Shown here in pieces: positions 1-15,028 of a DNA stretch of 64,000 bases; position 1 is the stretch's first letter, and every line of letters starts with the position of its first letter. Source of the stretch: an uncultured Candidatus Hydrogenedens sp. (GTDB taxonomy: Bacteria > Myxococcota > UBA4151); NCBI GenBank assembly GCA_902574205.1, contig CACGMS010000002.1, positions 22,746-86,745 of the forward strand, read 5' to 3'. The notes under the pieces are model-generated. The model was given only the letters and a program-made list of their open reading frames with translations. It had not been told where the DNA came from and searched no databases. The position numbers and the translations under genes were made by a program.

Positions 1-1
1 T

Positions 2-412
2 CAAGAGGCCCTGGATGCCTTCGTGCGTGAGTCGCACGCTGTCGGTATTCAGCTTTGCGAACGCTCTGGTGCTTCGCTGGCCATAAGTGGCGATCTATTC
101 CGTGTGGATCCCGGTCGCTTCGCGGCCTCTCTGGCCGGTTTGTTGGCTAGTGCGCAGGGCGTGATGCGCCCTTTAGGGCGGGAACAGGTTGAGAGTCTTC
201 ACATCGATGCCGGGGAGGTGAAACTCCTCTCGGCGCTCGTGAAACCCGGTTTCACGCTAGTCGTTGTCTTTGATGCGCGAAGTAGCCTTGGGGTGGTCCG
301 ATGGCGTTTGGCGTCTTTAGTGAGTCGTTTGGGGAGTCTTTTGGGTGCGAATGAGCATCAAAGAATAGGCTCACCGATCACGGATGAAGAAATTGAGAAT
401 CTGTTCTCTTAG
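2..412 (+). CDS. mglB: Roadblock/LC7-family protein, MglB-like (GTPase-activating protein homologue). 5' partial: the reading frame is open to the window edge.
   Basis: Frame 2 is open from nt 2 and stops at 412. The C-terminal part, TLVVVFDARSSLGVVRWRL...GSPITDEEIENLFS, matches by eye the M. xanthus MglB roadblock core and its acidic C-terminal helix (VVLVVIFDNRTSLGLVRLRI...GSPFAEISDDDIDNLFSE, recalled from memory). Confidence 0.55.
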   Translation, partial: QEALDAFVRESHAVGIQLCERSGASLAISGDLFRVDPGRFAASLAGLLASAQGVMRPLGREQVESLHIDAGEVKLLSALVKPGFTLVVVFDARSSLGVVRWRLASLVSRLGSLLGANEHQRIGSPITDEEIENLFS

Positions 413-413
413 T

Positions 414-447
414 GTAACACTGCTATACATGTTTGACGGGCTATAAT
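414..447 (+). promoter_or_regulatory. Candidate sigma70-type promoter for the downstream operon, with a -10 TATAAT at 442-447 and a weak -35.
   Basis: A TATAAT hexamer sits 49 nt upstream of ATG 496. The only -35-like hexamer, GTAACA, lies about 22 nt upstream, which is poor spacing. Confidence 0.2.
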
Positions 448-495
448 AGGGCTTGTTACCTGCGCGGCCTGACCGTGAGAGGCTTGGAGATTGCG

Positions 496-1320
496 ATGAA
501 TCTGATGGTTCGAGCAGCACTGTTTATTGCTCTAGTTGGCGTGCCCTTACCGGCTTGGTCTCAAGCAGCTTTGGAGGCGGCTCCGGCTGAAGCCGCGAAT
601 CCGACTGATGGTGATGAGCCTGGCGAAGATAAGGAGGCCCCTGCTGCAGTGGAGCAGTCGACCCCAGCCGCTTCAGCTGATCAAGCAGGATCAGGAAACT
701 CTGGGAACGCAGATGATGCAGATGATGCAGATGACGGCGAAGATGATGGTGACGATGCATACGATGTTCGAGTGCGCGATCTAGAAGAACGAGTCAACCA
801 ACTCAAGATGCGGATTTATCAAAGTAAAGCGCGCTTGGTTCGCTTGCAAGAGGCGGTCATGCATGGCGTGGTCAGTGGTGCTCGAGCACGGTTGGTTCAT
901 CGTAATGAGATGGGTTCGACATTCAAACTTCAAGAAGCTCATTATTTCCTTGATGGCGCACCGTTGAAGCAGATGTCGAACTTGGATGGTAGCCTTGCCA
1001 ATCAAAAGGAGATCGAACTGTTTCAAGGTCAAATTGTCCCGGGCAATCATCAGTTATCGGTGAATTTGGTTTATGCCGGTAATGGCTTCGGGATCTTTTC
1101 CTACTTGAAGGGTTATCGATTCAAAATCCGATCCAGCTACACCTTCTCCGCTGAGGAGGGTAAGTTCACCGAGATCAAAGTCGTTGGCTTTGAGCGTGGA
1201 GGGATTACGACTGACCTGAGGGAGCGACCGACTGTCCGTTATGACGTTGATGTCATGAAGGATACGGCTAGGTCTCAAAAGAAAGAGCAGGCGGATAAGC
1301 CTGTCGCCAAGGGGAACTGA
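496..1320 (+). CDS. Secreted hypothetical protein with a signal peptide, an Asp/Glu-rich low-complexity segment (DDADDADDGEDDGDD), a coiled-coil and a C-terminal beta-rich domain.
   Basis: ATG at 496 is preceded by GGAGA. MNLMVRAALFIALVGVPLPAWSQA is a signal peptide. The ORF track's 433 start adds a non-signal N-terminus and is unlikely. A 7-bp gap separates it from the next gene. Confidence 0.6.
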   Translation: MNLMVRAALFIALVGVPLPAWSQAALEAAPAEAANPTDGDEPGEDKEAPAAVEQSTPAASADQAGSGNSGNADDADDADDGEDDGDDAYDVRVRDLEERVNQLKMRIYQSKARLVRLQEAVMHGVVSGARARLVHRNEMGSTFKLQEAHYFLDGAPLKQMSNLDGSLANQKEIELFQGQIVPGNHQLSVNLVYAGNGFGIFSYLKGYRFKIRSSYTFSAEEGKFTEIKVVGFERGGITTDLRERPTVRYDVDVMKDTARSQKKEQADKPVAKGN

Positions 1321-1326
1321 CCCACT

Positions 1327-3675
1327 ATGCTGCGTCCTGCGGGGCTCTCGCTCCTTACTTTAGTCATCGCATTTAGCGTTGATGCCGAGGCTCAGTCCTC
1401 GGTCAAAGAGGGTTTGCGTACGGTTTCGGGGATGGCGGATGAGGTCAGCGGTCGAGCGCAGTTTATCGAGCAGCAGTTCCGCAAGAAGTCGATGGGTGTA
1501 GAAGAACGTGGTCGTAAAGCTCGGCTAGAAAACGGCGAGGTTTTGTTTTTGCTCAAAGACTACCGCAACGCTGCGGTTGTTCTTTTTGATCTCGTTGAAG
1601 ACCCTAAGCTTAAGAATGACAAACGGTATGCTGACGCCGTTTATTTTTTGGCTGAGTCATTGTTTCAAGATGGCAACGGCTCGGCGGCTCGTATTTACTT
1701 TAAGCGTTTGGTTGAAGCAGGGGCATCCCGTCATCTGACCCCCTCTATCCTGCGACTGATAGAGATAGCGGGCTCGCGTGCAGAGTTTGATGAGGTCGGT
1801 AAAGCGTTCAAGGCCTATCAAAAGGCGAGTGGTGGTCGGATTCCGCCGCAGGTCGATTATTTTTATGGAAAGTCGTTGATTCACGGTGGTGATTATGCGG
1901 CCGCTATCGAGCGCCTCAAGCGCTCTGCTGTTGAGGGGCCTTACCGTCATCAGTCGACGTATGCGACTGGTGTGGCGTTGGCCGCTTTGGGTAAACTCAA
2001 CGATGCGGCAGAAATGTTCGACTCTTTGCTGAAGTTTGTTCCTTCGACCGACGCTCAGAAAGAAATACGAGAACTTACCCACCTTGCCCGCGGACGAGTC
2101 TACTACGAAATTGGTGAAATCGGTGCGAGTATCGATGCCTATCAAAGCATTGATCACCGTTCGAAGTATTTCGATGAGATGTTGTTCGAAATTACATGGG
2201 CATACGTCAAAAGCGCTGAAGAAAAAGACGACGAAGACGATAAGAATACGCAATACAAAAAGGCGGTGCGGGCGGTTGAGATTTTACTTGCCAGTAATCC
2301 GCATTCGCCGGTTGTTCCTGAGGCGAAGGTTTTGCTTGGAAACCTGCACTTGCGCCTTAAGCAGTATGGACTGGCGGTCAAAGCATTTGACCAGGTGGTG
2401 AAGGACTACGAGCCGGGGCATGAGGAATTGCGACGGATTATTCGCGAGCGTGGTGATCCCATGCGGTATTTCCGCGAGATTATTGCGACCGGATTGGACA
2501 AGTTATCAGCAGAAAGCATGTTGCCGCCAGTTGCTTTGGATTGGGCTCGCTCTGACGGTGATCTGGACGGTGCTGTTCGTTTGTTCACCGAGCTTGAGCG
2601 CGGTGAGCGCGATTTAGCAGAAGCCGATCAGTTGATTGAAAAGATTCTTAGTCGCATTGAAGGTGAACGCCGAATTAACATGTTTCCGACCCTTGCCGAC
2701 CAACAAGGTCGAGCGGTTGAGGTTGGCGCTTTGGCTGCTGATTGTGAGCGTCGGTTGCTTGATTTGGAAACCCGCATCCTGCGTGAGCAGGGCTTGAATA
2801 CCGAGCAGTTGAGCGCGTTGCGTGCTGAGCGTCTACGGCTTCAGGCTCAGGTCGATAAGCTACCACCGACACTCAAGGCTCGAACGGAGCGAGTGGCGTC
2901 GGTCACGCGTCGGCTGGGTGATTTGAAGCAGCGTTTGTTCCGGCTGACGCTTGAGTTAAAAGGGTTTAAAAAGACGATCGCTGCGGTCGATCAGTACGTC
3001 GCAGGGCGTCGACAAAAAGGGAACCTGAGCCGTGAGGAGCTTGGATTCTTCCAGGTTAATGTGCCGGTGATTCGCGATATGATTATTGATATGGAGCGTA
3101 TTGCGCAGCGCCTCAAAGCTGAAATTGAGAGCGAGGTTTCGGGGGTTGGTGCTGGTGCCGGCAGTGATGAATTTGCGTTACGTGCTGAATTTCGCCAAGC
3201 GCTCGCTAGAGAGCGCGACGCCGCCACTCAGTTGAGGGCGCGATTGACTGGCGAAAATCTCACCGACATACGCAATCTTGATGCCGTTCGGCAGCGTGTG
3301 GCTCGAGCACAGCAACAAGTGGATAAGGTCTTGCGAGAACTTGAGACTGTAGTCGCTAACGAGGCGGGCAACATAAGAGGTCGCGTGATGGTGGAGCAAG
3401 CTCGTTTGAGGGGGCTTCGAGCAGAAGAGGAGGCCTTAGCGAGGCAGGCTGAGCGTGGAGCGATCGGCGCCGTAAATGCGACGCTGAGCAACGTGAGTAA
3501 CAAGTTCTATCAAATTATTCGCAACGCAGACGTTGGTAAAATCGATGTGGCTTGGGAGCAGAAAGAAACAGAAACCAAAGGGATTACTAAGCTGGGTCGA
3601 GCAAAAGAACGAGAGATGTCTCGTATTCGAGAGCAGTTTGACGAAGCTTTAGGCGGTGAGGGGGCTAGCAAGTGA
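1327..3675 (+). CDS. Periplasmic TPR-repeat protein with a long central coiled-coil (GltD/GltE-type candidate).
   Basis: 782-aa ORF. N-terminal signal peptide (MLRPAGLSLLTLVIAFSVDAEA). TPR-like helical repeats in the N-terminal half and heptad-rich segments from about aa 400 to 780. Its stop overlaps the next start (GTGA at 3672-3675). Confidence 0.7.
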   Translation: MLRPAGLSLLTLVIAFSVDAEAQSSVKEGLRTVSGMADEVSGRAQFIEQQFRKKSMGVEERGRKARLENGEVLFLLKDYRNAAVVLFDLVEDPKLKNDKRYADAVYFLAESLFQDGNGSAARIYFKRLVEAGASRHLTPSILRLIEIAGSRAEFDEVGKAFKAYQKASGGRIPPQVDYFYGKSLIHGGDYAAAIERLKRSAVEGPYRHQSTYATGVALAALGKLNDAAEMFDSLLKFVPSTDAQKEIRELTHLARGRVYYEIGEIGASIDAYQSIDHRSKYFDEMLFEITWAYVKSAEEKDDEDDKNTQYKKAVRAVEILLASNPHSPVVPEAKVLLGNLHLRLKQYGLAVKAFDQVVKDYEPGHEELRRIIRERGDPMRYFREIIATGLDKLSAESMLPPVALDWARSDGDLDGAVRLFTELERGERDLAEADQLIEKILSRIEGERRINMFPTLADQQGRAVEVGALAADCERRLLDLETRILREQGLNTEQLSALRAERLRLQAQVDKLPPTLKARTERVASVTRRLGDLKQRLFRLTLELKGFKKTIAAVDQYVAGRRQKGNLSREELGFFQVNVPVIRDMIIDMERIAQRLKAEIESEVSGVGAGAGSDEFALRAEFRQALARERDAATQLRARLTGENLTDIRNLDAVRQRVARAQQQVDKVLRELETVVANEAGNIRGRVMVEQARLRGLRAEEEALARQAERGAIGAVNATLSNVSNKFYQIIRNADVGKIDVAWEQKETETKGITKLGRAKEREMSRIREQFDEALGGEGASK

Positions 3676-6600
3676 CGCGTGGACTAACGCTGGCACTCGG
3701 TTTCTTTTTAGCCGCCCAGGTTGTTGCTCAGGGTCAGCCGGATACAGCCAAGCAATCGGAAGACGCTGAACCAGCACCAGCGAAAGCCGGGTCGACAGAC
3801 TCAAAGGCAGCAGAGCAACCATCAAATGATGATCCGCCAGAGGCGGGAGCCGCTGTGGCTGAGGCGCAGCAAAAGACGCCAGAGCAGTTAGCGAAAGAGA
3901 AAGCCAAAAAAGAATTTGAAGAGACCGTTGCTCGCTTCAAAAAGGTCTCTGATGAGTTCAATGCTGAGATTATGGCGACGATCAAGCGCAAGCGAGATGC
4001 TCGCATGCGCCGCATCGATATCGATTTTGAACAGCGTATCGGCGAGTTAGAGCGGCGTGAATCCGAGCGACGTAAAGGTGCAATTGAAGCATTTGAGCGC
4101 TTTGTGAGTCGCTATGCTTATGATGCCGAATATTCACCTCAAGCGATGTTTCGATTGGCTGAACTCTACTTTGAGCAAGCTAAATACGACTACAATGATG
4201 CCGATGAGGAGTTTTCTAGGCAGCTTGAATTGTTTGAGCAGAAAAAGATTGGCAAAGAGCCCGATGCGCCGGTTTTGGATTTGGCTAAGAGCATTAAGTT
4301 GTACGAGACAATCCTCAAGCGCTTTCCAAAGTTCGAACAAAACGACGGTGTTCAATATCTCCTAGCGTTTTGTTTAGAGGAGACCGGCGAATTTGAGCGC
4401 AGCCTGTCGAATTATGAAGGCTTGGTCGCTAACTACCCCGACAGTAAGTTTGTACCTGAAGTCTGGTTGCGTATCGGTGAAAATCATTTCACTGAAGATC
4501 GGTTATGCGAAGCGCTTGATGCTTATCGTCGGGTACTCAACAATCCCGAGTCAGCTTTGTACGATAAGGCACTCTACAAAGTCGCGTGGACGCACTATCG
4601 CCTCGATCGTTTTGATGCGGCGTACAAGCGCTTCATCGAGTTGATCGATTTTTCGGATAAAAAAGCTGAAGAAACCGGTGAGAGTGGATCAGACCTTAGG
4701 AAAGAGGCGTTGCAATACGTCGCTGTTGCTGCCGTTGAACAGGGGTGGGGGCGGCCTGCGACGGGCGAAGAGTTAGATCAGTGTAAAGCGGTTGTAGCTC
4801 AAGACGAGTTGTACGACGAAAAACAGGCTGAGTTGATGGATGAGTATGATGCCAAGGGGATCACGCCACCAGAAGTCTCAGCTGGTGACCGTTTGGAGCA
4901 GATGTTCGCTGCGGTGGGTGGGCGTAGCTACCAACGTGAAGTGTATTTAGAGGTGGCTAAGGTCCTGTTCGACCAAGCCGCATGGCAGAAGTATACGCCG
5001 ATCGCTAAGCGGGTGATCGAGCTTGACCCTATGCACCCGGATAATCCGAACGTGGCGATGAATATTATTGCTGCTTATGACCAACTGGGTCGCGAGAAGC
5101 TCGCTGAGGGCGCTGCTGCGCGTGAGGCATTGTTTACGACTTATGGTCCGGGTACCGAGTGGCAAGAGGCGAACAAAAATCGCCCTTCGGTGATTCGAAA
5201 GGCGATGAAGCTGGCTCAAGACGCTTTGATTTCCTCGGCCTTGTTTCGACTCGACCTTGCCCAGAAATACTTCCAGGAAGAGAAGGTCGCTTTAGCCTCT
5301 GAAGAAGCTCGAGTTTCTGCGCAGATGCTTTCTGACTACATCGAGCGATTTCCTTATGACCCAAATCTCTACGAGTACAACTATTACCTAGGTATTGGTT
5401 ATACAATGTCGGTGCAGTTTCTTAAGGCAGCCGACGTCTTTGAGTTGGTACGCGACGATAAGAAGAATAGTAAATATCGCGAGGATGCGGCTTACCGTGC
5501 GTTCTTGAACTTGCAGGCCGAGGTCGATTCGCAAACTCAAAAAGGTACGTTGCCTGAGCCGCCACCGCTAGCGGATACTCCGCAGGAGATTCCTCGCCTT
5601 TTGGTGCGTTTGATCGACGCGTCGATGAGGTACATCAAATCAAGTCCAAACACCGAAGATACACCGCGTTTCTACTTTAATGCAGCGACAATTTATGCCC
5701 AATACTCACACAAGTCGAAAGCCGATAAATGGTACCGAAAACTGATCGATACCTTCCCTGAGTCGGAAGGGGCGGTGGATGCTGCTCGATGGGTGCTCAA
5801 TGAGTACTCTGCTACAGAAGACTGGAAGAACGTTGAGGCCTGGTGTCGCCGTATGCTCAAGATTGGCGTCGGTAAAGACAACGAAGAATTCAAAGAGCAG
5901 ATGAGCAAAAGCGCTGCCGGTGCTGTGTATAAGCAAGCCGTCGCTGCGTTTGGTAAAAAGGAATTCCAACTGGCGCATGACGAGTTTTTGCGCTTGGTCA
6001 AGGAGGACCCGAAGAATCAGTTTGCAGCTAAGGCGCTGTATTCAGCAGCTCAGTCAATGGCTGAACTTAAGCGCTTTTTGTCGGCCGGTCAGCTTTATGA
6101 GCGAGTCTTCAAAGAGTACCCAGAAGATAAAGATCTCGCTGCAAAAGCATTATTTAATGTTGCATCGACGGCCTATGAGGGCTTTGAGTTCGATCGCGCC
6201 ATCTCATTGTATTTGAAATTGGTGTCCGATTACAAAGATTTCCCCGATCGAGCCGATGCGCTCTACAACGCTGCTGTTGCGCTACAGAGCACCGAACAGT
6301 TCAAGCGCGCCGCGCTGTTGTTTCAGAAATACACCAAGCTGTTTAAAGATCGGCCTGATGTACCTGAGGTGTTTTTCAATTCGGCTTTGGTTTGGGAGCA
6401 GGCGAAAGACGATCGCCGCATGAAACGAACATTTAATGAGTTTATTCGTAAGTACGGCAGTAAGAAAGAACAAGGCGGGCGTGTCGTTCAAATCTATTCG
6501 AAGTTTAGCGACCAATTGTGGGACGAGTTGGTGACTTTGAAATCGAAGCCGCCGAAAAGCAGGGCTCAGCGCCGGCGGTGGTCTAAATCGGTCAAGAATG

Positions 6601-7640
6601 CGCGAAAGAAAGTCGACCGATTTGTTGATAAAACGCTGGATGAATACAAAAAACGAGGTTTTGCACCGCAAACGATTGAGGCAGCTTATGCTGCTAAGGC
6701 GCATTTTCGTAAACTCGAAGCTGAATTCGAAGAGTACGCGGCGCTCGATTTTGGTGTGCAGGCACGAAAAGATGTTGAGCTTGCAAAGAAGCTTCAAAAG
6801 CGCATCAAAGAGAAGTTTGAATGGGCGAACAATCTTGAGAAAAAGTACCTCGATATCTTCCAGTATCTGACCTTTGATTGGACCTTGGCTGCATCGTATC
6901 GAATTGGTTCGATCTGGGAGAATTTTGCCGAGAAACTCTACAATGCGCCAGTGCCGAGACAGTTTCGTAATGACGACATTATGATGGATGAGTGGAAGGT
7001 TTTGCTTGAGCAGCAAGCCGAGCCATTTGAGCAGCGTGCGGTGCAAAAGTATGGCGACCTCATCAAAGAGGCGCGCAAGCGGAAGTTCCGCAACATGTGG
7101 ACGAAAAAGGCACTTCAGAGTTTGAATCGTTATGCGCGAGACGAATGGCCGATCGAAAAAGAAGCAATTACGAGTGGTCTTGAGGCGTTGTTGCCTGGTG
7201 ACTTGTTCGCTCAGCCCGCAGCTTATCGAAAGCCGCCACCACCGCCGCCGGAACCCAAAGACAAGGGCGAAGAGAAGCCTGAGGATAAGGGCGAAGAGAA
7301 GTCTGAGGACAAGGGTGAAGAGAAGCCTGAGGATAAGGGCGAAGAGAAGTCTGAGGACAAGGGTGAAGAGAAGCCTGAGGATAAGGGCGAAGAGAAGTCT
7401 GAGGACAAGGGTGAAGAGAAGCCTGAGGATAAGGGCGAAGAGAAGTCTGAGGACAAGGGTGAAGAGAAAGCTGAGGACAAGGGTGAAGAGAAAGCTGAGG
7501 ATATGGTGGAAAATCAACCCGCCGTCGATGTTCAGCCGTCGGATGTGCCTAGCCCGGACCAAGTAGAAGCCGACCAAAAATCCGCCGAAGAGAAATCGGA
7601 TCAAGCGCCACCAGCCGATAGCGATGAGGAGGACAAATGA
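3672..7640 (+). CDS. Large secreted TPR-repeat protein (1322 aa) with a C-terminal acidic (DKGEEK[P/S/A]E)x10 repeat tail.
   Basis: GTG start overlaps the upstream stop. Signal peptide MTRGLTLALGFFLAAQVVAQG. Multiple TPR-like repeats with the Y/W/F-A-L pattern. A 240-bp perfect tandem repeat sits at the 3' end. Its stop overlaps the next ATG (ATGA at 7637). Confidence 0.75.
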   Translation: MTRGLTLALGFFLAAQVVAQGQPDTAKQSEDAEPAPAKAGSTDSKAAEQPSNDDPPEAGAAVAEAQQKTPEQLAKEKAKKEFEETVARFKKVSDEFNAEIMATIKRKRDARMRRIDIDFEQRIGELERRESERRKGAIEAFERFVSRYAYDAEYSPQAMFRLAELYFEQAKYDYNDADEEFSRQLELFEQKKIGKEPDAPVLDLAKSIKLYETILKRFPKFEQNDGVQYLLAFCLEETGEFERSLSNYEGLVANYPDSKFVPEVWLRIGENHFTEDRLCEALDAYRRVLNNPESALYDKALYKVAWTHYRLDRFDAAYKRFIELIDFSDKKAEETGESGSDLRKEALQYVAVAAVEQGWGRPATGEELDQCKAVVAQDELYDEKQAELMDEYDAKGITPPEVSAGDRLEQMFAAVGGRSYQREVYLEVAKVLFDQAAWQKYTPIAKRVIELDPMHPDNPNVAMNIIAAYDQLGREKLAEGAAAREALFTTYGPGTEWQEANKNRPSVIRKAMKLAQDALISSALFRLDLAQKYFQEEKVALASEEARVSAQMLSDYIERFPYDPNLYEYNYYLGIGYTMSVQFLKAADVFELVRDDKKNSKYREDAAYRAFLNLQAEVDSQTQKGTLPEPPPLADTPQEIPRLLVRLIDASMRYIKSSPNTEDTPRFYFNAATIYAQYSHKSKADKWYRKLIDTFPESEGAVDAARWVLNEYSATEDWKNVEAWCRRMLKIGVGKDNEEFKEQMSKSAAGAVYKQAVAAFGKKEFQLAHDEFLRLVKEDPKNQFAAKALYSAAQSMAELKRFLSAGQLYERVFKEYPEDKDLAAKALFNVASTAYEGFEFDRAISLYLKLVSDYKDFPDRADALYNAAVALQSTEQFKRAALLFQKYTKLFKDRPDVPEVFFNSALVWEQAKDDRRMKRTFNEFIRKYGSKKEQGGRVVQIYSKFSDQLWDELVTLKSKPPKSRAQRRRWSKSVKNARKKVDRFVDKTLDEYKKRGFAPQTIEAAYAAKAHFRKLEAEFEEYAALDFGVQARKDVELAKKLQKRIKEKFEWANNLEKKYLDIFQYLTFDWTLAASYRIGSIWENFAEKLYNAPVPRQFRNDDIMMDEWKVLLEQQAEPFEQRAVQKYGDLIKEARKRKFRNMWTKKALQSLNRYARDEWPIEKEAITSGLEALLPGDLFAQPAAYRKPPPPPPEPKDKGEEKPEDKGEEKSEDKGEEKPEDKGEEKSEDKGEEKPEDKGEEKSEDKGEEKPEDKGEEKSEDKGEEKAEDKGEEKAEDMVENQPAVDVQPSDVPSPDQVEADQKSAEEKSDQAPPADSDEEDK
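7260..7499 (+). repeat. In-frame tandem DNA repeat: 24-bp unit x10, with strict 48-bp super-period. Encodes DKGEEKPE/DKGEEKSE alternation.
   Basis: Units gacaagggYgaagagaagYctgag / gataagggcgaagagaagtctgag alternate. U3 to U8 are three perfect 48-bp copies. The last two units carry aaagct (KAE). Confidence 0.92.
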
Positions 7641-9589
7641 AACGTGTCGTACTTTTCATGATCCTCGGTGCTTCGTGTGCCTCACCGAAACCTGCCCAGC
7701 CTGAACCGGTTGTCTTTGATGAGGCGCCAGTAATGGAGCCTGAAGCCGGCCCGGCTGAGCCTGTTGAGGCGGGTTTTACACCGGATGCAGCGGCAGACGC
7801 AGGTGAGATCGTTGTTCCGGATGCAGCGGTCGATGCTGGTTCGGTGCTTCCTGATGCGGGTACTGTCGACGCAGGGCGTTTGGTTGAGCCTTTGTTGCCC
7901 GATGAGGCCCTAAAAGCGCGCTTTGAAAAAGCTCTAGACCAAGCGCTTGATGACCCGAAAGCTGCGGAGTCTGAGTTTGATGCGATCGCTGCTGTGGCAC
8001 CCAACTTCTATTTTGCGCATTACAATGCTGCGCTGTGTCGTTTGAGACAGGGTGATAAACAAGCAGGCATGGCTCGATTGCAGTCTGTGCATGACCAGTT
8101 TGGTTCGGTTTTTCATGGCGCAACAGAAGCGCTTGCTTGGGCAAAGTTTCGCGATGGCGATAAAGAAGGCGCACAGTCCCTTCTAAGGGGCGCGATGAAT
8201 GATCACCCTCGTGTTCTTGATTTGCGAAACGCGTACGGTCGCATGTTGCTTGAAGTTGGTCGTTACGAAGAGGCGGCTGCGCTATCGATGAAAACTCTTA
8301 AGAAAGACGAAGTAAATGTCTCTGCGATGCAGGTTCTAGGTTGGTCGTTTTGTAAGCGTGAAAAGATGGGGCTGTGCCTTCTCGTGCTCGGGAACGCGTT
8401 GAAAGTTCCTGGTGAAGAAGCGAACGGGATGACCAATTACCTAGCGGCTTTAGCGTACCTAAAATATGCGAAAGGTGCTCAGAAGTTAACAGCTGAAGCG
8501 CGCGTTCGCCGCGCTCATGGGTATTTGGAAAAGGCAGCCGCAGGCTTGCCAGATAAGCCAGAGGTACTGATTAATTATGCTCGCGTTTTGCTCGATCGCG
8601 GCGACCCTCAGCAGGCCTATAAGTTAAGTCGAAGAGCCACGGTTCTGCGGCCGGACTTAATCGAGGGTTGGATGCTCAAGGCTGTCGCTGAGCGCGATAA
8701 GGGTGACTATGCCGCAAGTCGAACGACCTTTTTGAAGATTCTCAACGAGTATCCAGAACAGTATTCGGTGCTTTATAATTTGGGTATTTTGTATCTCGAT
8801 CACGGCATGAAAAAGGTCGAGGGACAAGAGTTGTGTCCAGATGTCTCGATCGACGACATGAAGCAAGAAGTGGGATCGGATTTGTTTGACGGTGTCGCGG
8901 TCAAGCACGTCGACAAGACGATGGTCGACAAACTGCGCCGATTGCGTCAGGCGACGAGTTACCTTGAGCGGTTTCGTAAGAGTACGGAGCTCGATAATGA
9001 GCGCTCGATCGAAGTGGAGAAACAGATCCGCGCAGCGAATAAGGCCATTCGTAGCGAGAGTAAGAAACGCGCGCGGAACATCAAGCGTGCCAAGCGAGAA
9101 AAGAAAAAGGCAGAGCGGCGCAAAAAGCGGATGGAGCGCGAAGCCAAGAAAAAAGCTGCTGAGGAAAAGAAAGCCGCTGAGGAAAAGGCTGCTGCTGAAG
9201 CGCAGGGCGCTGCTGTAAGTGGAGAAGCTGACGGTTCATCGCAGGTTGAGTCGACGTCTTCGAAGGATAACGCGAACACGGACGCTGATGCGCCTGTTGC
9301 TGAGCCGGTGCCAACGCCAGAGACCGCAGCGGGAGCGCCGCGAGCGAACGCCGGCGAAGGCGAAGAAAAGGGCGAAGAAAAGGGCGACGAAAAGAGCGAA
9401 GAAAAGGGCGAAGAAAAGAGCGACGAAAAGAGCGACGAAAAGAGCGACGAAAATTCGTCTGAGCAAACTAAGCCTGCGTCGGAATCCAAATCTGATGATG
9501 AATCGCAGTCTTCTGCTTCGGAAGATCAGCAGCAAGCCGAAGCTGAGAATGAAGAACCTTCTGATGGTTCGGAGCGCGAAGAGAAATGA
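7637..9589 (+). CDS. TPR-repeat lipoprotein (650 aa) with a Lys-rich coiled-coil segment and an acidic EEKGE/DEKSD repeat tail.
   Basis: N-terminus MKRVVLFMILGASC has signal and lipobox-like features. TPR-like repeats at aa 120-400. KRAKREKKKAERRKKRMEREAKKKAAEEKKAAEEKAAAEA helix. 15-bp repeats at 9352-9455. Coupled by ATGA at both ends. Confidence 0.72.
   Translation: MKRVVLFMILGASCASPKPAQPEPVVFDEAPVMEPEAGPAEPVEAGFTPDAAADAGEIVVPDAAVDAGSVLPDAGTVDAGRLVEPLLPDEALKARFEKALDQALDDPKAAESEFDAIAAVAPNFYFAHYNAALCRLRQGDKQAGMARLQSVHDQFGSVFHGATEALAWAKFRDGDKEGAQSLLRGAMNDHPRVLDLRNAYGRMLLEVGRYEEAAALSMKTLKKDEVNVSAMQVLGWSFCKREKMGLCLLVLGNALKVPGEEANGMTNYLAALAYLKYAKGAQKLTAEARVRRAHGYLEKAAAGLPDKPEVLINYARVLLDRGDPQQAYKLSRRATVLRPDLIEGWMLKAVAERDKGDYAASRTTFLKILNEYPEQYSVLYNLGILYLDHGMKKVEGQELCPDVSIDDMKQEVGSDLFDGVAVKHVDKTMVDKLRRLRQATSYLERFRKSTELDNERSIEVEKQIRAANKAIRSESKKRARNIKRAKREKKKAERRKKRMEREAKKKAAEEKKAAEEKAAAEAQGAAVSGEADGSSQVESTSSKDNANTDADAPVAEPVPTPETAAGAPRANAGEGEEKGEEKGDEKSEEKGEEKSDEKSDEKSDENSSEQTKPASESKSDDESQSSASEDQQQAEAENEEPSDGSEREEK
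9352..9455 (+). repeat. Imperfect 15-bp in-frame tandem repeat (about 7 units) encoding (E/D)EK(G/S)(E/D).
   Basis: Units are gaagaaaagggcgaa / gacgaaaagagcgaa / gacgaaaagagcgac variants. Confidence 0.7.
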
Positions 9590-9660
9590 TGATCGACTTC
9601 TCGTTAATTTCGAACCCTTGCGCTCAACTGAAGCGTGTGTACCATGCGGTAGGGGAGCGT

Positions 9661-9918
9661 ATGATGCGAGTGAAGCAGCCAGGGTGGCTACGATTGCGTT
9701 GGGCTGGCCTCGCGGTCCTGGCCGTTCTAATGTTTGGCTCGACACCAGCGTATGCGAAAAAGTTGGTTATCTCAGAAGCTTTTGAAATTACTGGGAAAAT
9801 ACAGCGACCTCAGGCGATGTATATCCTCCAGCGACAAAAGCTAAATCTCAAGGGTCTTCAACTTCGCCGGAGTCTAATTCCCAAGCTCTTAGAAAGTATG
9901 CGCAAGCCGCCACTTTGA
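9661..9918 (+). CDS. Small secreted hypothetical protein (about 85 aa).
   Basis: In the 9586-9918 ORF, the internal start ATG 9661 (after GGGGAG) gives the signal peptide MMRVKQPGWLRLRWAGLAVLAVLMFGSTPAYA. No recognisable domain. Confidence 0.3.
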   Translation: MMRVKQPGWLRLRWAGLAVLAVLMFGSTPAYAKKLVISEAFEITGKIQRPQAMYILQRQKLNLKGLQLRRSLIPKLLESMRKPPL

Positions 9919-10020
9919 CGGCTTGCCACACAAAAGAAAGTTAACTAACAACCCTCTTCAGATAATTGTGTGGTCCAAAATCTTGGGTCACTGAGGACAA
10001 GAGACATACAGGAGGTTCTC

Positions 10021-10671
10021 ATGTCGGTAGTTGCCGAGTTTTACAAACAGGGTGGTACTTGGATGCATCCCATCGCATTCGTGTCGGTGGTGGTGGTCGC
10101 GGTTTGTGCGGAGCGGATTTATTTCCTCTGGTTCCGTTACAACCTAAATGCTCACAGTTTCATGGGTCAGATTCAAAAGCTGATCATGGAAAACAGTGTC
10201 GATCGGGCGATCAAGCTGTGCAATGCTGAGCAGCATGCTGCGTTGCCGAGGATCGTGAAATCCGGTCTGACTCGCGCCAACAAAGGTGAGCAAGAAATCA
10301 CAAACGCTGTCGAAGAGATGGTGCTTGAGATGACCCCGCTCATCAGCAAGCGGATGGCATGGCTTCCGACGTTGGCGTCGTTGGCAACGATGCTCGGTCT
10401 TCTTGGTACGATTATCGGTATGATCGAAGCGTTCGCCGCCGTGGCGAAGGCAGCGCCTGATCAGAAGCAGGAAATGCTTGCCGGTGCTATTGCTATCGCG
10501 ATGAACACCACGGCGTTTGGTCTGATGGTCGCGATCCCGACCATGTTCCTTAGTCTGATTCTCAACACGTTGGTGAAGAAGATTATGGATGAAATTGATC
10601 AATACAGCATCAAGCTGGTTAATATGCTTGTCCTGCGTGGTCAGGGTGGGACCAACCCGCTCAATCGCTAG
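10021..10671 (+). CDS. MotA/TolQ/ExbB-family proton channel (AglR/TolQ-like).
   Basis: AGGAGG lies 6 nt upstream of ATG 10021, so the ORF-track start at 9970 is unlikely. About 216 aa with three TM helices and the conserved TolQ/ExbB C-terminal TM pair (LASLATMLGLLGTIIGMIEAF...AIAMNTTAFGLMVAIPTMF). Confidence 0.82.
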   Translation: MSVVAEFYKQGGTWMHPIAFVSVVVVAVCAERIYFLWFRYNLNAHSFMGQIQKLIMENSVDRAIKLCNAEQHAALPRIVKSGLTRANKGEQEITNAVEEMVLEMTPLISKRMAWLPTLASLATMLGLLGTIIGMIEAFAAVAKAAPDQKQEMLAGAIAIAMNTTAFGLMVAIPTMFLSLILNTLVKKIMDEIDQYSIKLVNMLVLRGQGGTNPLNR

Positions 10672-10751
10672 GAAGTGAATTGAGTGAATTGAGTCCTGTC
10701 GCTGGCGACGGTGGCTCTCTTATGGTTGTCTGAATATGTTGGAGTGACAGC

Positions 10752-11522
10752 GTGGCACGCAAAAAGATCAAGGAAGAAGTCCCTGAGCCAAACTTGGTTC
10801 CTGTGATGAACCTGGTGATGTTGTTGATCCCGTTCTTGTTGATGGCTTCGGCCTTCTTCGAAGTGGCGATCATTAACGTCAGTGCGCCGAAGGTAGCTTC
10901 TGGGCCGAGCTCGGATGATACCCCTAAAGATGATAAGCCGAAACTCAATCTGACCGTTGTGGTTAGTGACGGTGGTTTCAAGATTTGTGCGTATGGTGGT
11001 TGTCTTGGACCGGGCGGGGTTCGAGCTGAGGGTGGCGCCGCAAACGGTCCTGGGGCAGGTGGTAAGCCAACCGTTGCAACGACGCGCTTCTCGCATGAGT
11101 GCGTCGATAAAACTGCAACGCCTGCTCCTCCGGCATGTACCTTGCCGTTGCTTGCTTCGTGTCGGTCTGACGGCAGCGCACCTCATGATTTGCCGTATCC
11201 CGAGCGTTTGGCGAAAAATATGGATACGAACGGTGGCAGTCGCAAGGACTGCGATGGTGACGGTAAAGCCGATGTAGATATCTGCAAGGGTGAAGCAACA
11301 GACTGCAATTATCAGAATTATGACTACGCTGCATTGCGCAAGCATCTAGCTAAACTCAAGGCGGGAGCTGAGCAGGAGCGTAAGGTGATGATCATGGCCG
11401 ACGAAGGTATTCCCTTTGAGGTAGTCGTTGGGGTTATGGATATCGCTCGTGATATGAAGACCGAGAGCGGGGAGACGAAAGAGTTGTTCCCCGACGTGGT
11501 CCTTTCGCCGGGCTTCCAGTAG
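10752..11522 (+). CDS. ExbD/TolR-family protein (AglQ/AglS-like) with a roughly 110-aa Gly/Cys-rich periplasmic insertion.
   Basis: GTG start after GGAGTGA. Basic N-terminus plus TM (NLVPVMNLVMLLIPFLLMASAFF) as in ExbD. The C-terminal ExbD core is RKVMIMADEGIPFEVVVGVMDIARDMK. An 8-Cys Gly-rich insert lies between the first beta-strand and the core. Confidence 0.7.
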   Translation: MARKKIKEEVPEPNLVPVMNLVMLLIPFLLMASAFFEVAIINVSAPKVASGPSSDDTPKDDKPKLNLTVVVSDGGFKICAYGGCLGPGGVRAEGGAANGPGAGGKPTVATTRFSHECVDKTATPAPPACTLPLLASCRSDGSAPHDLPYPERLAKNMDTNGGSRKDCDGDGKADVDICKGEATDCNYQNYDYAALRKHLAKLKAGAEQERKVMIMADEGIPFEVVVGVMDIARDMKTESGETKELFPDVVLSPGFQ

Positions 11523-11541
11523 TCCGAAAGGAAGGTAAATC

Positions 11542-12144
11542 GTGACCGAAGAGCAAAATGTCGAGTCGGTTGAAGAGCAGAAGGCCGTTGAGTCGGTCGA
11601 CGGTGCTTATCCTGGATGGGATGAGCAACAACCGCCAGCGAAGAAGAAGAAACAGGCAGGAGGTATTGGTGACGAAGAGGTCCCGATGCCGAATATTACG
11701 TCGCTACTCGACGCGCTGTTCATTATTCTCGTGTTCCTCCTGAAAAGCTATTCAACCAACCCAGTTTCGGTGACTCAGAGCGCGAGTCTGAAGTTAGCGG
11801 CTTCCGCTGCGCAGCTCAGTCCGAAAGATGCATTGCCGGTGATTATTGATAAAAAAGGTATCACCGTCGACGGTATCGAGACGATGAAGTTTGATGATAA
11901 GGGTATGGTTCCGGCGGATCAGGTTGCCGGTCACATTATTGCGCCTTTGTCGCAGGCATTGCGTGATCAAGCTGAGAAGCAGCGTAAGCTGGCTCAGTTG
12001 AACACCGATGTCAGTTTTAAAGGTGAGTTGATTCTTATTTGCGATAAGGATTTACCATATAAAATCCTGCGCGATATCTTAATGACGGCTGGCGATGCGG
12101 AGTATGGTAATTTCCGTTTCGCTGTGATTAAGGCTGCGGGCTGA
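11542..12144 (+). CDS. ExbD/TolR-family protein (second paralogue).
   Basis: GTG start after AGGAAGG. Acidic N-terminal extension, then TM (ITSLLDALFIILVFLLK). The periplasmic ExbD-like core is GELILICDKDLPYKILRDILMTAGDAEYGNFRFAV. Confidence 0.7.
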   Translation: MTEEQNVESVEEQKAVESVDGAYPGWDEQQPPAKKKKQAGGIGDEEVPMPNITSLLDALFIILVFLLKSYSTNPVSVTQSASLKLAASAAQLSPKDALPVIIDKKGITVDGIETMKFDDKGMVPADQVAGHIIAPLSQALRDQAEKQRKLAQLNTDVSFKGELILICDKDLPYKILRDILMTAGDAEYGNFRFAVIKAAG

Positions 12145-12175
12145 TTACCCACCAGAGAGAAAGGCGACGCCATCT

Positions 12176-13534
12176 ATGGGCACGAAGGTTCTCAAGGTAG
12201 CGGTCACTCAAGGTAAAAAAATCCTTGAGCAGAAACTCATCAGTAGCCGAACTTCGGTTACCGTGGGGACTGCGGCATCGAATACATTGCATGTAAGCGG
12301 TGAAGGCTTACCGGATACTTATAATCTGTTTGAGGTTGTTGGCGGAAAGTATTGCCTGAACTTCACGGAGAAGATGACGGGCAAGGTCAATGTTGGTGGT
12401 GGTCAGCTTGATTTTGAAACTGCCCGACAACAGACCGGTGTGCGTAAGCGCGGTAATGAATACCAAATGGTACTCAGCGAGGCGTCCAAAGGTGCAATCG
12501 AGTTGGGTGCTGGCGGTGTCCGCATCATCTTTCAGTTTGTCGATGCGCCCGCTGATGCGGTGCCTGCAAAACTGGCAGATTCGACGTATATGCCGCCTCT
12601 GCAGCGCTTGGATCGAGTGTTTTGGGGTTGTTTGGTTGTCTCTGCGTTGCTGCATACGGGTGGGGTGATCGGTGCGATGAACGCGCCGCCACCGCCGAAG
12701 CGCAAGATCACCGAGTTGCCTGATCGTTTTGCTAAGATGATCATCAAGAAGCCGCCAAAAGTTAAGCCGAAAGAAGAAAAGAAAAAAGAGCCCAAGAAAG
12801 ACGGTGAGAAGAAGCCGTCCGAGAAAAAATCCGAAAAGAAAGCTGAGCCGAAACCAGAGAAAAAGCCGGCTAAAAAAGCTCAAACAGCTGCCAAGAAAGA
12901 AGAGCGTCGTGCCCAGGCTCAACAAGCCGTCCGCCAGAGCGCTGTCTTCAAGGCTTTAGCGATCGCTACGTCCGGCGGCGGCGCTGGCGTCGTGTTTCAG
13001 GCAGACGGTGACCCTCGAACTGATGTTAGCGCAGCGTTAGCGGCTTCGGGCGGAGCGGGTATCGCCGCTGCGGATGGAGGGCCCGGTGGGCCTGCTGTTC
13101 GAGGTGGCTCCGGTGGCGGAGGGCCTGTTGGTATTGGTGAAGTGGGCGGCGTGGCCGTCGGCGGCGGTGGGGGTAAGATAGCCAAGCGAAAAGGCCCGAA
13201 AATCCGCGTACGTATGAAGATGAGTAAGCCGAAGATTGACGACGGCGAGCTGGACGGAAAATCAGTTGCTCGTAAAATTCGGGCTCGAAAGCGTGCGTTC
13301 CAGGCTTGTTATGAGCGAGAACTCAAACGTAATCCGTCGCTCAAAGGTAAGCTGGTCTTAGAAGTTACGGTTGGCGAGAATGGTCGTGTCGCCGATATCT
13401 TTGTCGCCGATAACGCGCTCAATAACGCTGTGGCTAACTGCATCAAAGGCAAGATGCGTTCGATTCGTTTCCCGAAACCAGAGGGTGGCGAAGCAACGTT
13501 CTCCTATCCGTTCGTCTTTGCATCGAGTGGGTAG
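12176..13534 (+). CDS. Bitopic GltG(PglI)/GltJ(AgmX)-like protein. It has a cytoplasmic FHA-like domain, one TM, a Lys/Pro/Glu-rich linker, a Gly-rich segment and a C-terminal TonB-C-like AgmX/PglI-type domain.
   Basis: The N-terminal 135 aa carry a degenerate FHA pattern (VTVGTAASNTLHV...GGKYCLNFTEKMTGKVNVGG). TM is VFWGCLVVSALLHTGGVIGAM. Linker is PPPPKRK...KPKEEKKKEPKKDGEKKPSEKKSEKKAEPKPEKKPAKK. C-terminus is FQACYERELKRNPSLKGKLVLEVTVGENGRVADIFV...CIKGKMRSIRFPKPEGGEATFSYPFVF, which resembles the AgmX/PglI C-terminal (TonB-C-like) family. Confidence 0.65.
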   Translation: MGTKVLKVAVTQGKKILEQKLISSRTSVTVGTAASNTLHVSGEGLPDTYNLFEVVGGKYCLNFTEKMTGKVNVGGGQLDFETARQQTGVRKRGNEYQMVLSEASKGAIELGAGGVRIIFQFVDAPADAVPAKLADSTYMPPLQRLDRVFWGCLVVSALLHTGGVIGAMNAPPPPKRKITELPDRFAKMIIKKPPKVKPKEEKKKEPKKDGEKKPSEKKSEKKAEPKPEKKPAKKAQTAAKKEERRAQAQQAVRQSAVFKALAIATSGGGAGVVFQADGDPRTDVSAALAASGGAGIAAADGGPGGPAVRGGSGGGGPVGIGEVGGVAVGGGGGKIAKRKGPKIRVRMKMSKPKIDDGELDGKSVARKIRARKRAFQACYERELKRNPSLKGKLVLEVTVGENGRVADIFVADNALNNAVANCIKGKMRSIRFPKPEGGEATFSYPFVFASSG

Positions 13535-13536
13535 TT

Positions 13537-14463
13537 ATGCAGCGGCTGGATCGTGCGGGGATTGAAGTCCTTCTCGAGACTGAACAGTTCAAGAGTTGGT
13601 TTGCCGAACTTAACGGTCTCAATCATCGCCTCGAACTTTTAGAATCCTCGATTGAGCGCGCTGCGGAGGCGTGCGCAGAAGCCGGCTTCCGATGCACCTA
13701 TTGGCAAGAAGCTGCTGAAGAGGCGTTGTTGCGGTCAGCCGACCTGGGTAATACCTGCCATAATCTGCGTACGGAGATCGCTCGCTTAGAGAACGAAGCT
13801 TTTAGACGGCTTGCAGAGTTTGAGAGCGTTCGGGATGAGGTCACCGATCTGTGGATCAAAATTACAGCGATCGAGCATCGTTGTGATGATCATCCGGACG
13901 AAGCAACTCGCGTAAGGTCTCGAGCTCGCTATCAAGGCGAGTTGAAAAAACTTCGAGCAGCCTATGCATCCAGTAATGAGCGTAAAGAAGCACTTTGGCA
14001 GGCCGAAGAGCTGCTTTGGATGCAAGTGGCGGAGCAGACCCTCATGGTGCCCGAGATCGAAGTTCGTTCTCAGCGTTTAGAAGAGCGCTATGGACAGTTG
14101 ATGCACCGCGTTGAGGCGTTACAAGAGCGGGAGAAGCGTGCGCAACAAACGCTGGCTGATGAGCGTGAGGAACTGGTTGAAGTTCAGAAGCAAATGGCAA
14201 AATTGCGCTCTGCGGCAAAGATGTCGTTTTCCTGTGTTTGCCATGAAAATTTTCTCTATTGGCCGATTGGTGACGATGCGAAACTTGCTCTGGTTGTCGC
14301 CCTCAATTCGAATCCGACGGATTACAATATTGAGGTGAAGAGCGGGCAATTGTATCAATGTGAAACCGAGAGAGGCGTCCGGTATCTTGAGCCCGTCAGT
14401 GTCGGTACGTCGGTTGTGGAAGAAGATGAGCGTCTTATTCGGTTCTTTGAGGAGGTCGCATGA
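13537..14463 (+). CDS. Cytoplasmic coiled-coil hypothetical protein (308 aa).
   Basis: Starts 3 bp after the upstream stop. Heptad-rich, no TM or signal peptide. Its stop overlaps the next ATG (ATGA at 14460). Confidence 0.6.
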   Translation: MQRLDRAGIEVLLETEQFKSWFAELNGLNHRLELLESSIERAAEACAEAGFRCTYWQEAAEEALLRSADLGNTCHNLRTEIARLENEAFRRLAEFESVRDEVTDLWIKITAIEHRCDDHPDEATRVRSRARYQGELKKLRAAYASSNERKEALWQAEELLWMQVAEQTLMVPEIEVRSQRLEERYGQLMHRVEALQEREKRAQQTLADEREELVEVQKQMAKLRSAAKMSFSCVCHENFLYWPIGDDAKLALVVALNSNPTDYNIEVKSGQLYQCETERGVRYLEPVSVGTSVVEEDERLIRFFEEVA

Positions 14464-14918
14464 GTGAGGCTTATGATCGGGTCGAAGCGCTTCAGGCCTC
14501 GCCTTTGTTTAACGATCTTTTGCCGTTGGAAAAACAATATCTTGCGGATTTAGCAGTCCATCGCCAACTCGGAGCAGGCGACATCCTTTTTGAGGAAGGT
14601 GATGTTGGTGATGCGATGTATGTCGTGGTCAGTGGTGAGTTGGGCGTTGAGGTTGGCGAGAATGGTGTAAATCACGAAATAGCGACTTTAGTGGCGCCTG
14701 ATTTTGTGGGTGAAATGGCGTTGATTGATAAACGGCCTAGGGCAGCTCGCGTTCGCGCAAAATCGGATGCGGTTTTGTTAGCGATCAGCCATGCGAACAT
14801 TTACTCTTTTGCCCGTGTTCATCGAAGCGGTTTTACTTGGTTAGTGGTCAATATTGCGAAAAACCTGGCCAGCCGCTTACGTGCGATGAACGACGCTGCT
14901 TCGGGTGTGGCCGAGTGA
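14460..14918 (+). CDS. Standalone cyclic-nucleotide-binding (CAP-family cNMP) domain protein with no HTH.
   Basis: GDILFEEGDVGDAMYVVVSGEL...FVGEMALIDKRPRAARVRA is the canonical cNMP-binding beta-roll with the phosphate-binding GE...R(A)A. Only 152 aa, so no effector domain is fused. Confidence 0.8.
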   Translation: MSEAYDRVEALQASPLFNDLLPLEKQYLADLAVHRQLGAGDILFEEGDVGDAMYVVVSGELGVEVGENGVNHEIATLVAPDFVGEMALIDKRPRAARVRAKSDAVLLAISHANIYSFARVHRSGFTWLVVNIAKNLASRLRAMNDAASGVAE

Positions 14919-15028
14919 CCTTTTGGCCACCATTTTAAAAGGGTTACTTTGAACGACCATTTCCCTTGCCCCGATCGGCCGTTTCCCGGATACTATAACT
15001 CTAGCGCCGCGGTCTGTGATTTTGGCGC

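Follow-up and report, generated by a model that had tools for sequence, protein, structure and literature searches.

We analysed 64,000 nucleotides of contig CACGMS010000002.1 (GenBank assembly GCA_902574205.1, positions 22,746 to 86,745 of the forward strand; this whole stretch is called the window below) from an uncultured bacterium deposited as Candidatus Hydrogenedens sp. and placed in the Myxococcota, lineage UBA4151. Twelve co-directional genes on the + strand of window positions 1-14918 encode a putative trans-envelope machine comprising a TolQ/TolR-like motor, a GltG-type transducer, secreted tetratricopeptide repeat (TPR) proteins and likely regulators. Its identification, from sequence, as a predicted machine of the Agl/Glt family of Luciano et al. 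2011 is firm, and conserved gene order points to orthology with the G4 paralog cluster of Myxococcus xanthus (MXAN_1919-1924), not with Glt proper. An earlier note on this DNA, made from the sequence and its open reading frames (ORFs), had described an Agl/Glt-type core; models and homology uphold membership of the family, while Glt proper is not upheld, the cut-off of the GltG equivalog model being missed. The grouping of these genes is far more than chance: 80 of 80 related Myxococcota loci show them in one and the same order.

Components of the cluster

The + strand of window positions 1-22000 is a tight gene run, in which the cluster is followed by genes for a porin candidate and an OPX (outer-membrane polysaccharide export) protein. 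Features are listed below with their M. xanthus positions where these apply, lengths being in amino acids (aa); the tags MXAN_1924-1926 and MXAN_1918 are presumed, from gene order and the mglBA tags.

1..412 (frame 2..412), +, MglB-like Roadblock/LC7 protein; 5' end cut by the window start
496..1320 (alternative start 433), +, secreted protein at the MXAN_1924 position; predicted to comprise a signal peptide, an acidic disordered stretch, a long helix and a transthyretin-like beta-sandwich
1327..3675, +, GltC-like secreted TPR/coiled-coil protein at the MXAN_1923 position; 782 aa; TPR_16, NF033756
3672..7640, +, GltD-like secreted TPR protein at the MXAN_1922 position; 1322 aa; YbgF/CpoB-type TPR modules, acidic repeat tail
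7637..9589, +, GltE-like TPR lipoprotein at the MXAN_1921 position; 650 aa; NF033758
9661..9918 (could start at 9586), +, small secreted GltF-like protein at the MXAN_1920 position; conserved position, faint CglF/GltF match
10021..10671, +, AglR-like MotA/TolQ/ExbB channel subunit; Pfam MotA_ExbB, three hydrophobic segments
10752..11522, +, first ExbD/TolR-like subunit, AglQ position; Pfam ExbD, Asn20, Cys-rich periplasmic insertion
11542..12144, +, second ExbD/TolR-like subunit, AglS position; Pfam ExbD, N-terminal extension, Asp57
12176..13534, +, GltG-type bitopic transducer; 452 aa; NF033768, NF033760, AlphaFold2 model
13537..14463, +, cytoplasmic coiled-coil protein; SMC/Rad50-like coiled-coil matches only
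14460..14918, +, stand-alone cyclic-nucleotide-binding (cNMP) protein at the MXAN_1918 position; Pfam cNMP_binding, 72.5 bits
15029..16333, +, WzpB-like outer-membrane porin candidate at the MXAN_1916 position; 434 aa; homology to a Myxococcus/Archangium gene
16333..16926, +, WzaB-like class-3 OPX lipoprotein at the MXAN_1915 position; 197 aa; Pfam Poly_export (74.4 bits) and SLBB

Every gene named in the earlier note was found on the + strand where that note had put it, and the 4-base start/stop overlaps that it reported are present (GTGA at 3672; ATGA at 7637, 9586 and 14460). The co-directional run that it described also stands, with twelve genes in 1-14918 in place of its "at least nine". 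The "380-bp gap" that it saw before the TolQ-like gene is not empty: it contains a conserved small ORF with a signal peptide, and a spacer of about 100 bp is left between this ORF and the TolQ-like gene if the latter starts at ATG 10021, its most likely start, behind an AGGAGG site. The MglB-like gene does come first in the cluster, and its ORF has no upstream in-frame stop and is hence incomplete at the window edge. Within the cluster, scans for Rfam families and for tRNAs came back empty, a promoter scan performed no better than on shuffled sequence, and promoter and terminator scans were uninformative on operon limits. The GC content of the window is 52%, which is low beside cultured myxobacteria.

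The motor is encoded by one MotA/TolQ/ExbB gene followed by two ExbD/TolR genes, an arrangement noted earlier and confirmed here by Pfam matches of the TolQ-like protein to MotA_ExbB (PF01618; 86.6 bits, 1.5e-24) and of the TolR-like proteins to ExbD (PF02472; 48.2 bits/1.4e-12 for the first, 36.8 bits/4.9e-9 for the second). The comparison with a 1 TolQ to 2 TolR stoichiometry holds as a ratio of genes and not as a measured stoichiometry. Equivalog models score well below their cut-offs, the TolQ-like protein reaching 56 bits for TolQ (cut-off 221) and 41 bits for ExbB (cut-off 206), and the TolR-like proteins 20.9 bits for TolR (cut-off 127) and 16.5 bits for ExbD_2 (cut-off 123). The solved structures nearest to the channel subunit are TolQ (E 1e-7) and ExbB, in the range E 1e-7 to 1e-5. 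Its sequence homologs number 7556 at E<=1e-10, the best 120 being ~60-65% identical and ~217 aa long (216-217).

The two TolR-like proteins align together across the transmembrane (TM) helix only, and they differ in the protonatable TM Asp that the earlier note had singled out. The second retains Asp57 in SLLDALF, a motif conserved across loci, while the first carries Asn20 (PVMNLVM) where TolR, ExbD and AglQ have the Asp; M. xanthus AglQ requires Asp28 (PMC3858216). The Asn of PVMNLVM is kept in every motor-bearing locus found by the genome searches described below (L001-L004, L006, L055, L083 and L084). Moreover, among 146 representative homologs of the first TolR-like protein, taken from a library of 1.8 billion proteins, the Asn form (P-x-M-N-L) occurs in 117 and Asp in 20. 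Judged from these residues, the predicted motor is of a type that combines an Asn-bearing with an Asp-bearing subunit, unlike AglQ as described, and the pair presents a natural experiment on protonatable-residue use in 5:2-type motors. The first TolR-like protein also has a Gly-rich periplasmic insertion with eight Cys (residues ~75-190) that is restricted to the window clade, where this protein measures 256-271 aa as against 153-218 aa elsewhere. A second stator-like set, consisting of one MotA_ExbB and two MotB_plug proteins, one of which has an OmpA domain, lies ~6 kb upstream of the cluster in a close relative (L081 1338-3775, - strand).

The bitopic protein encoded at 12176-13534 passes the AgmX/PglI C-terminal model NF033768 with 94.5 bits (cut-off 40), and it matches the GltG model NF033760 across model positions 206-649 (E 8e-52; 176.7 bits as against a cut-off of 650). 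Its score for TonB_Cterm (TIGR01352) is 16.5 bits, under the cut-off of 27.1, its TolA and TonB matches are weak, and the GltJ model matches it through the shared C-terminal domain only. An AlphaFold2 model built on 16 homologs predicts an all-beta N-terminal domain (residues 1-123, pLDDT 80-90), a TM helix at ~147-169, a long low-confidence linker rich in Lys/Pro/Glu and in Gly, and a compact C-terminal domain at ~345-450. When the predicted model was used as a Foldseek query against the PDB, the N-terminal domain was matched foremost to the FHA domains of GarA, OdhI, Rv1747 (FHA-1), kanadaptin and MDC1, at probability 1.0, E about 1e-3 and TM 0.5-0.66; it was also paired with a type III secretion FHA-like domain, and the C-terminal domain was matched to TonB C-terminal domains. 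The architecture that the earlier note had likened to GltG and AgmX (FHA-like domain, TM helix and TonB-C-like domain) is borne out, as a prediction, by NF033768, AlphaFold2 and Foldseek.

The FHA-like character of the N-terminal domain holds as a predicted fold, while the Pfam FHA model and the phosphothreonine-binding residues do not support it. PF00498 gave no match to this protein at E<=0.05. In the 16-homolog alignment the Gly of the Gly-Arg motif is the only invariant element of the FHA motifs, and the phosphothreonine-contacting Arg, Ser/His and Asn are not conserved, as judged by inspection of the sequence alignment and not by structural superposition. In M. xanthus GltG, a canonical FHA domain occupies residues 26-90 (PMC3169522 Table 1). 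Equating the N-terminal domain with that canonical FHA was rejected, as the protein aligns to the GltG model from position 206. Because the alignment begins there, the window protein is best modelled as a GltG without its first ~200 residues that keeps a degenerate, membrane-proximal domain of predicted FHA fold.

Upstream of the motor, the three large secreted TPR proteins of the earlier note are confirmed by TPR models and by homology; inspection shows signal peptides on the first two and a lipoprotein-type signal peptide on the third. They are 24-32% identical to the Myxococcus genes listed as MXAN_1921-1923, over the full length for the GltC-like and GltD-like proteins. The GltC-like protein matches TPR_16 (1.3e-13) and the GltC model NF033756 (1.1e-10; 40.9 bits, cut-off 450), and is 28% identical over ~770 aa to the ~806-aa Myxococcus gene at the same position; MXAN_1923 is listed at 809 aa (Luciano Table S3, PMC3169522). 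The GltD-like protein reaches 129 bits for YbgF (TIGR02795), a score that exceeds the cut-off when summed over 4-6 stretches, and is 31-32% identical over >1100 aa to a ~1124-aa Myxococcus gene, MXAN_1922 being the gltD homologue of the G4 paralog cluster (PMC3169522). The GltE-like protein, with the N-terminus MKRVVLFMILGASC, matches NF033758 (1.6e-8; 34 bits, cut-off 225), and its gene keeps its position in related loci. The kinship with GltD and GltE proposed earlier is thus direct and weak for GltE and transitive, through MXAN_1922, for GltD. The note had also given aglRQS plus gltD/E/G as the published core; these components stand, while the published core also includes GltC. Tandem DNA repeats at 7260-7501 (24/48 bp) and 9360-9453 (12/36 bp) both encode acidic KGEEK(P/S)ED C-terminal tails, of the GltD-like and the GltE-like protein respectively.

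The small GltF-like protein (85-110 aa, signal peptide ...FGSTPAYA) is kept at the same place in 70+ related loci at 35-70% identity and has a faint NCBIfam match to CglF/GltF (E 0.17). Its start is more likely ATG 9661, behind an AGGGGAG site, than 9586. The protein at the MXAN_1924 position, which gave generic transthyretin-like matches only, is 53-57% identical to its Myxococcus counterpart over ~180 aa, and among the cluster proteins only the TolQ-like subunit is better conserved; the 2011 table (PMC3169522) does not include it with the G4 homologues.

Putative regulators stand at both ends of the cluster. The truncated MglB-like ORF matches Pfam Robl_LC7 at 23-412 (23.6 bits, cut-off 23; 4.5e-5), shows 28% identity with Myxococcus MglB across 139 aa (E 3e-13) and keeps the C-terminal tail ...DEEIENLFS; the homolog in a close relative has 146 aa and follows lspA. 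MglB opens the cluster in 40 of the 54 related loci that reach far enough. In the window clade it follows secA and lspA without a neighbouring mglA (L081 8709-9916), and an MglA homolog was found neither in the 64-kb window nor, for the close relative, within 10 kb upstream of the cluster. In other lineages an mglB-mglA pair stands at the cluster start, with true mglB and mglA in the Myxococcus/Archangium loci. In two further loci (L083 1-14768 and L084 1-14300), one contiguous block holds mglB-mglA, the genes for the beta-sandwich and C/D/E/F-like proteins, the motor genes, and those for the GltG-like and coiled-coil proteins, and the mglA product is 87% identical to M. xanthus MglA. Because these loci carry mglB-mglA in the block, a polarity GTPase module is found directly beside the machine well beyond Myxococcaceae. 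The coiled-coil gene follows the GltG-like gene in a subset of loci (including L055, L057, L083 and L084), and the cNMP-binding gene, which has 43-46% identity with the Myxococcus/Archangium copies, is present in 55 of 65 loci extending downstream. A class III adenylate/guanylate cyclase (35920-36954) and MreB (38124-39152) are encoded 21-24 kb downstream; that this cyclase is the source of a ligand for the cNMP-binding protein is conceivable.

Conserved order and paralog assignment

A genome search with the GltG-like family alignment as query, using one genome per species, gave 260 confirmed loci, of which the best 80 were examined. These 80 are phylogenetically clustered, mostly in Myxococcaceae and Archangiaceae, and M. 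xanthus itself is represented by a 3-kb contig (L079), for which other Myxococcus species served as proxies. The synteny comparison suggested by the earlier note gave one order in all 80: MglB-(MglA)-beta-sandwich-C-D-E-F-(R-Q-S)-G-(coiled-coil)-cNMP-porin-OPX, with the genes in brackets being optional and MglA usually present. The G4-type cluster is widespread in Myxococcota. The closest genome, the Myxococcota metagenome-assembled genome (MAG) XB_MAG121, shares 92% identity in the GltG-like protein and was used for context upstream of the window start, and the same locus occurs on a Tara Oceans scaffold. The GltG-like proteins of the window clade are only 33-38% identical to those of Myxococcaceae.

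Only 6 of the 80 loci, those of the window clade and of two divergent MAGs, carry a TolQ-like gene and a pair of TolR-like genes between the genes for the GltF-like and GltG-like proteins. A search from the TolQ-like protein added two motor-in-block lineages (L083 and L084). The simplest reading is that a contiguous, motor-containing block is ancestral and that the motor was lost or moved in Myxococcaceae.

Because the gene order, the gene sizes and the mglBA and WzpB/WzaB flanks of the related loci match the MXAN_1915-1926 region, the cluster is assigned, by synteny, as a G4 ortholog. The Myxococcus/Archangium genes of ~806, 1124, 535, 93 and 447 aa correspond to MXAN_1923, 1922, 1921, 1920 and 1919 (Table S3). 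The function of G4 is reported as not known (PMC3169522), and in the part of the literature that can be searched we found no mention of MXAN_1918-1921, 1923 or 1924.

The polysaccharide-export neighbourhood and its interpretation

The porin candidate has a signal peptide, ends in ...FEAKY and may form an outer-membrane barrel; its identity with the ~421-aa gene that immediately precedes OPX in Myxococcus/Archangium is 24-28% (E 1e-14 to 1e-16). The OPX gene overlaps it by 1 base. The OPX protein consists of PF02563 and SLBB only, with no outer-membrane-spanning segment, shows EpsY and PEP-CTERM export matches, and is 39-44% identical to a 204-aa Myxococcus protein. It carries a lipobox-like LALGAC and ends in ...PESYF, as compared with ...PESFF in M. 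xanthus. In M. xanthus, WzpB (MXAN_1916; PMC9603273) and WzaB, whose Phe203-Phe204 motif binds WzpB (PMC12819527), are a porin and a class-3 OPX protein required experimentally for secretion of biosurfactant polysaccharide (BPS), and the pair is called "orphan-like", lying 1 Mbp from the remaining BPS pathway (PMC7310880, PMC9603273, PMC12819527).

Of the 65 loci whose sequence runs on for at least 4.5 kb downstream, 57 have both the porin and the OPX gene there, with a median of 2.5 kb from the GltG-like stop to the OPX start, and the adjacency is seen in the window clade, Myxococcaceae, Archangiaceae and Bradymonadia-labelled loci. This conserved synteny backs the earlier suggestion that the module at 15-20 kb is a partner of the machine. 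Directly after the OPX gene, positions 16946-19935 encode an RmlA-like sugar-1-phosphate nucleotidyltransferase and a 747-aa GT-C (ArnT/PMT-like) glycosyltransferase with 14 TM segments, a pair conserved in the window clade (L001, L002, L004 and L053). Farther downstream, a complete type II secretion system lies at 22132-35752 (PDZ GspC-like protein, secretin, GspE, GspF, pseudopilins and GspK/L/M-like proteins).

When PMC7310880, PMC9603273 and PMC12819527 were searched by terms, Nfs, TonB and mglA/mglB were not mentioned, and Glt came up only as gliding background in the introduction of PMC7310880. In a 2025 field review, likewise searched by terms, Nfs is tied to the spore-coat polymer and a core complex is not mentioned. 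No mention of a linkage between G4 and porin/OPX was found in the searchable portion of the papers. The linkage may already have been noticed by others, because the 2015 review by Agrebi et al. reportedly links capsule export with Agl/Glt evolution.

We lean, with modest confidence, towards a G4-type trans-envelope machine that has its own motor and acts on a neighbouring exported polysaccharide by proton-powered, TonB-like transduction. The AglR-like subunit and the heteromeric TolR-like pair (Asp57, Asn20) would form an inner-membrane proton channel that converts proton flow into movement. This motor would drive the single-pass GltG-type protein, whose linker and TonB-C-like domain would span the periplasm and engage a scaffold of GltC/D/E-like TPR proteins, the GltF-like protein and the beta-sandwich protein. 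The coupling of motor, GltG-type protein and TPR scaffold is proposed by analogy with M. xanthus, where AglR binds GltG as well as NfsG and where the machinery needs proton conductance (AglQ D28; PMC3858216). The YbgF/CpoB-type modules could provide a contact with the GltG-type protein resembling that of TolA with CpoB. The output might gate, pull or distribute polymer leaving through the WzpB-like porin and WzaB-like OPX protein, comparable to the action of Agl-Nfs on the spore coat, in which Agl-Nfs carries Nfs proteins round the spore and organises the Wza-exported polymer (PMC3858216). The degenerate FHA-fold domain, the coiled-coil protein, the cNMP-binding protein and MglB likely make up the control side.

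Several observations weigh against this account. Four motor-in-cis lineages (L006, L055, L083 and L084) have no porin/OPX downstream and carry FG-GAP/Ig-like surface proteins or other genes there instead, which shows that the linkage is not universal, and, the loci being phylogenetically clustered, fewer independent observations stand behind the figure of 57 of 65 than it suggests. The 110-bp spacer at 14918-15029 could divide two transcription units. A mutant with a polar insertion in MXAN_1922 showed no appreciable change in gliding or in the pilus-dependent spreading seen on soft agar (PMC3169522), while BPS-minus mutants are impaired in swarm spreading; BPS export in M. xanthus therefore probably does not require G4. 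Moreover, the step from G4 to a function is one that we infer, with synteny as the evidence that points to polysaccharide.

The normal spreading of the MXAN_1922 mutant (PMC3169522) would also be expected if the same G4-type machine served another cargo, such as a surface protein or adhesin, or another envelope process, with the porin/OPX pair as a neighbour by descent. This is a real possibility, though on balance we think it unlikely. It gains from the large FG-GAP/Ig-like surface proteins downstream in motor-in-cis lineages that lack OPX and porin (L055 and L083), and from the action of Agl-Glt on the adhesin CglB (bioRxiv 10.1101/2020.07.22.216333). However, the adjacency of porin and OPX survives a divergence to 33-38% GltG-like identity between the window clade and other families, and Nfs, the sole characterised non-motility paralog, works on an OPX-exported polymer (PMC3858216).

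A gliding-motility machine equivalent to Agl-Glt would account for the homologs of AglRQS and GltC/D/E/F/G and for the adjoining MglB, and Bdellovibrio, which glides, has reduced sets of such genes (PMC3169522). It is nevertheless improbable here: the GltG, GltC and GltE equivalog cut-offs are missed 4- to 11-fold, the canonical N-terminal FHA of GltG is absent, no homologs of GltA, B, H, I, J or K were found among the cluster proteins (for GltA, B, H, I and K, no NCBIfam match among the 18 proteins of 1-22 kb), and gliding in M. xanthus does not depend on the orthologous cluster (PMC3169522). An ordinary TonB-ExbB-ExbD or Tol-Pal/CpoB system for nutrient uptake or envelope integrity is largely refuted and very improbable, even though the channel subunit has TolQ and ExbB as its nearest solved relatives, the 12176 protein is predicted to end in a domain of TonB C-terminal fold and has weak TolA/TonB matches, and the 1322-aa TPR protein exceeds the YbgF cut-off with its modules summed. 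The TolQ, ExbB, TolR and TonB_Cterm cut-offs are all missed, the ExbD paralogs are very different from one another and one lacks the Asp, the transducer has an FHA-fold N-terminus, and M. xanthus has a separate bona fide Tol-Pal besides G4. Co-regulated TonB-dependent receptor genes, which the earlier note had treated as a sign against its reading, are not in evidence, as neither a TonB-dependent receptor nor TolB or Pal turned up in those proteins of the window that were scanned. TonB uptake, Tol-Pal and Glt gliding proper were accordingly rejected, on missed equivalog cut-offs and partner genes that were not found.

What the conserved Agl/Glt core and the M. xanthus paralogs G4, G5 and M2 do has been a standing question since 2011, and the block described here is usually followed by a porin/OPX pair that has been treated as an orphan part of the BPS pathway. 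A broader proposal, which we consider rather doubtful, is that the G4 machine is a proton-powered accessory of class-3 OPX/Wzp secretion under MglA/MglB and cyclic-nucleotide control, that this is the ancestral job behind Glt and Nfs, and that mglBA was originally its regulator. If this were true, the GltG-type protein and the TPR scaffold would act on the WzpB/WzaB translocon or its polymer by opening, pulling on or moving it. For M. xanthus, the comparison raises the hypotheses that MXAN_3003-05 powers G4, that G4 acts on BPS or on WzpB/WzaB, and that MglA regulates G4. M. xanthus glides and sporulates without the orphan Agl-like set MXAN_3003-05, whose AglR homologue binds neither GltG nor NfsG (PMC3858216).

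Comparison with known systems

The closest counterpart is M. xanthus G4, which has the same genes, in the same order and of the same sizes, from MglB to the class-3 OPX gene, including a ~450-aa GltG-like protein without the canonical FHA domain. The two differ in that the window keeps the TolQ-like and two TolR-like genes in the cluster, whereas Myxococcaceae G4 has no motor there, and in that the window has a coiled-coil gene after the GltG-like gene and no mglA beside mglB. Myxococcaceae also have an extra gene for a secreted coiled-coil protein of ~225 aa at the MXAN_1917 position, between the cNMP and porin genes (L037 11748-12449; L070 11798-12469), which the window lacks. The Geobacter core complex GM21_0438-0445 has the same order as the window, GltC-GltD-GltE-small gene-AglR-AglQ-AglS-GltG (PMC3169522). 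Relative to it, the window adds the MglB, beta-sandwich, coiled-coil, cNMP and porin/OPX neighbours, and its GltE-like protein has 650 aa as against ~272 aa, a comparison made through the published table.

Agl-Nfs is a non-motility Glt paralog with a TolQR-like motor, a GltG paralog and a polymer exported by a Wza-type (class-3 OPX) system (PMC3858216), which the window cluster resembles in its motor and GltG-type genes and, as proposed here, in its cargo. It differs in having GltA/B-type outer-membrane proteins and a borrowed AglRQS motor, whereas the window cluster has its own motor and no detected GltA/B. Agl-Glt shares with the window the homologous motor, the GltC/D/E/F/G parts and putative MglAB-type regulation; its GltG has 640 aa with a canonical FHA domain, in contrast to 452 aa without one in the window. 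The TonB-ExbB-ExbD and Tol-Pal systems share the channel family, the ExbD/TolR partners, a single-pass transducer with a linker and TonB-C fold, and YbgF/CpoB modules, and the window differs from them in its divergent ExbD pair, its cytoplasmic FHA-fold domain and the missed equivalog cut-offs. The cluster is a further member of a known, functionally unsolved family and not a new kind of system. To what is known of that family, our analysis adds an exact paralog assignment from synteny, a probably ancestral contiguous arrangement, a degenerate predicted FHA fold, an Asn/Asp subunit pair, and a recurrent neighbourhood of mglB(A) and WzpB/WzaB.

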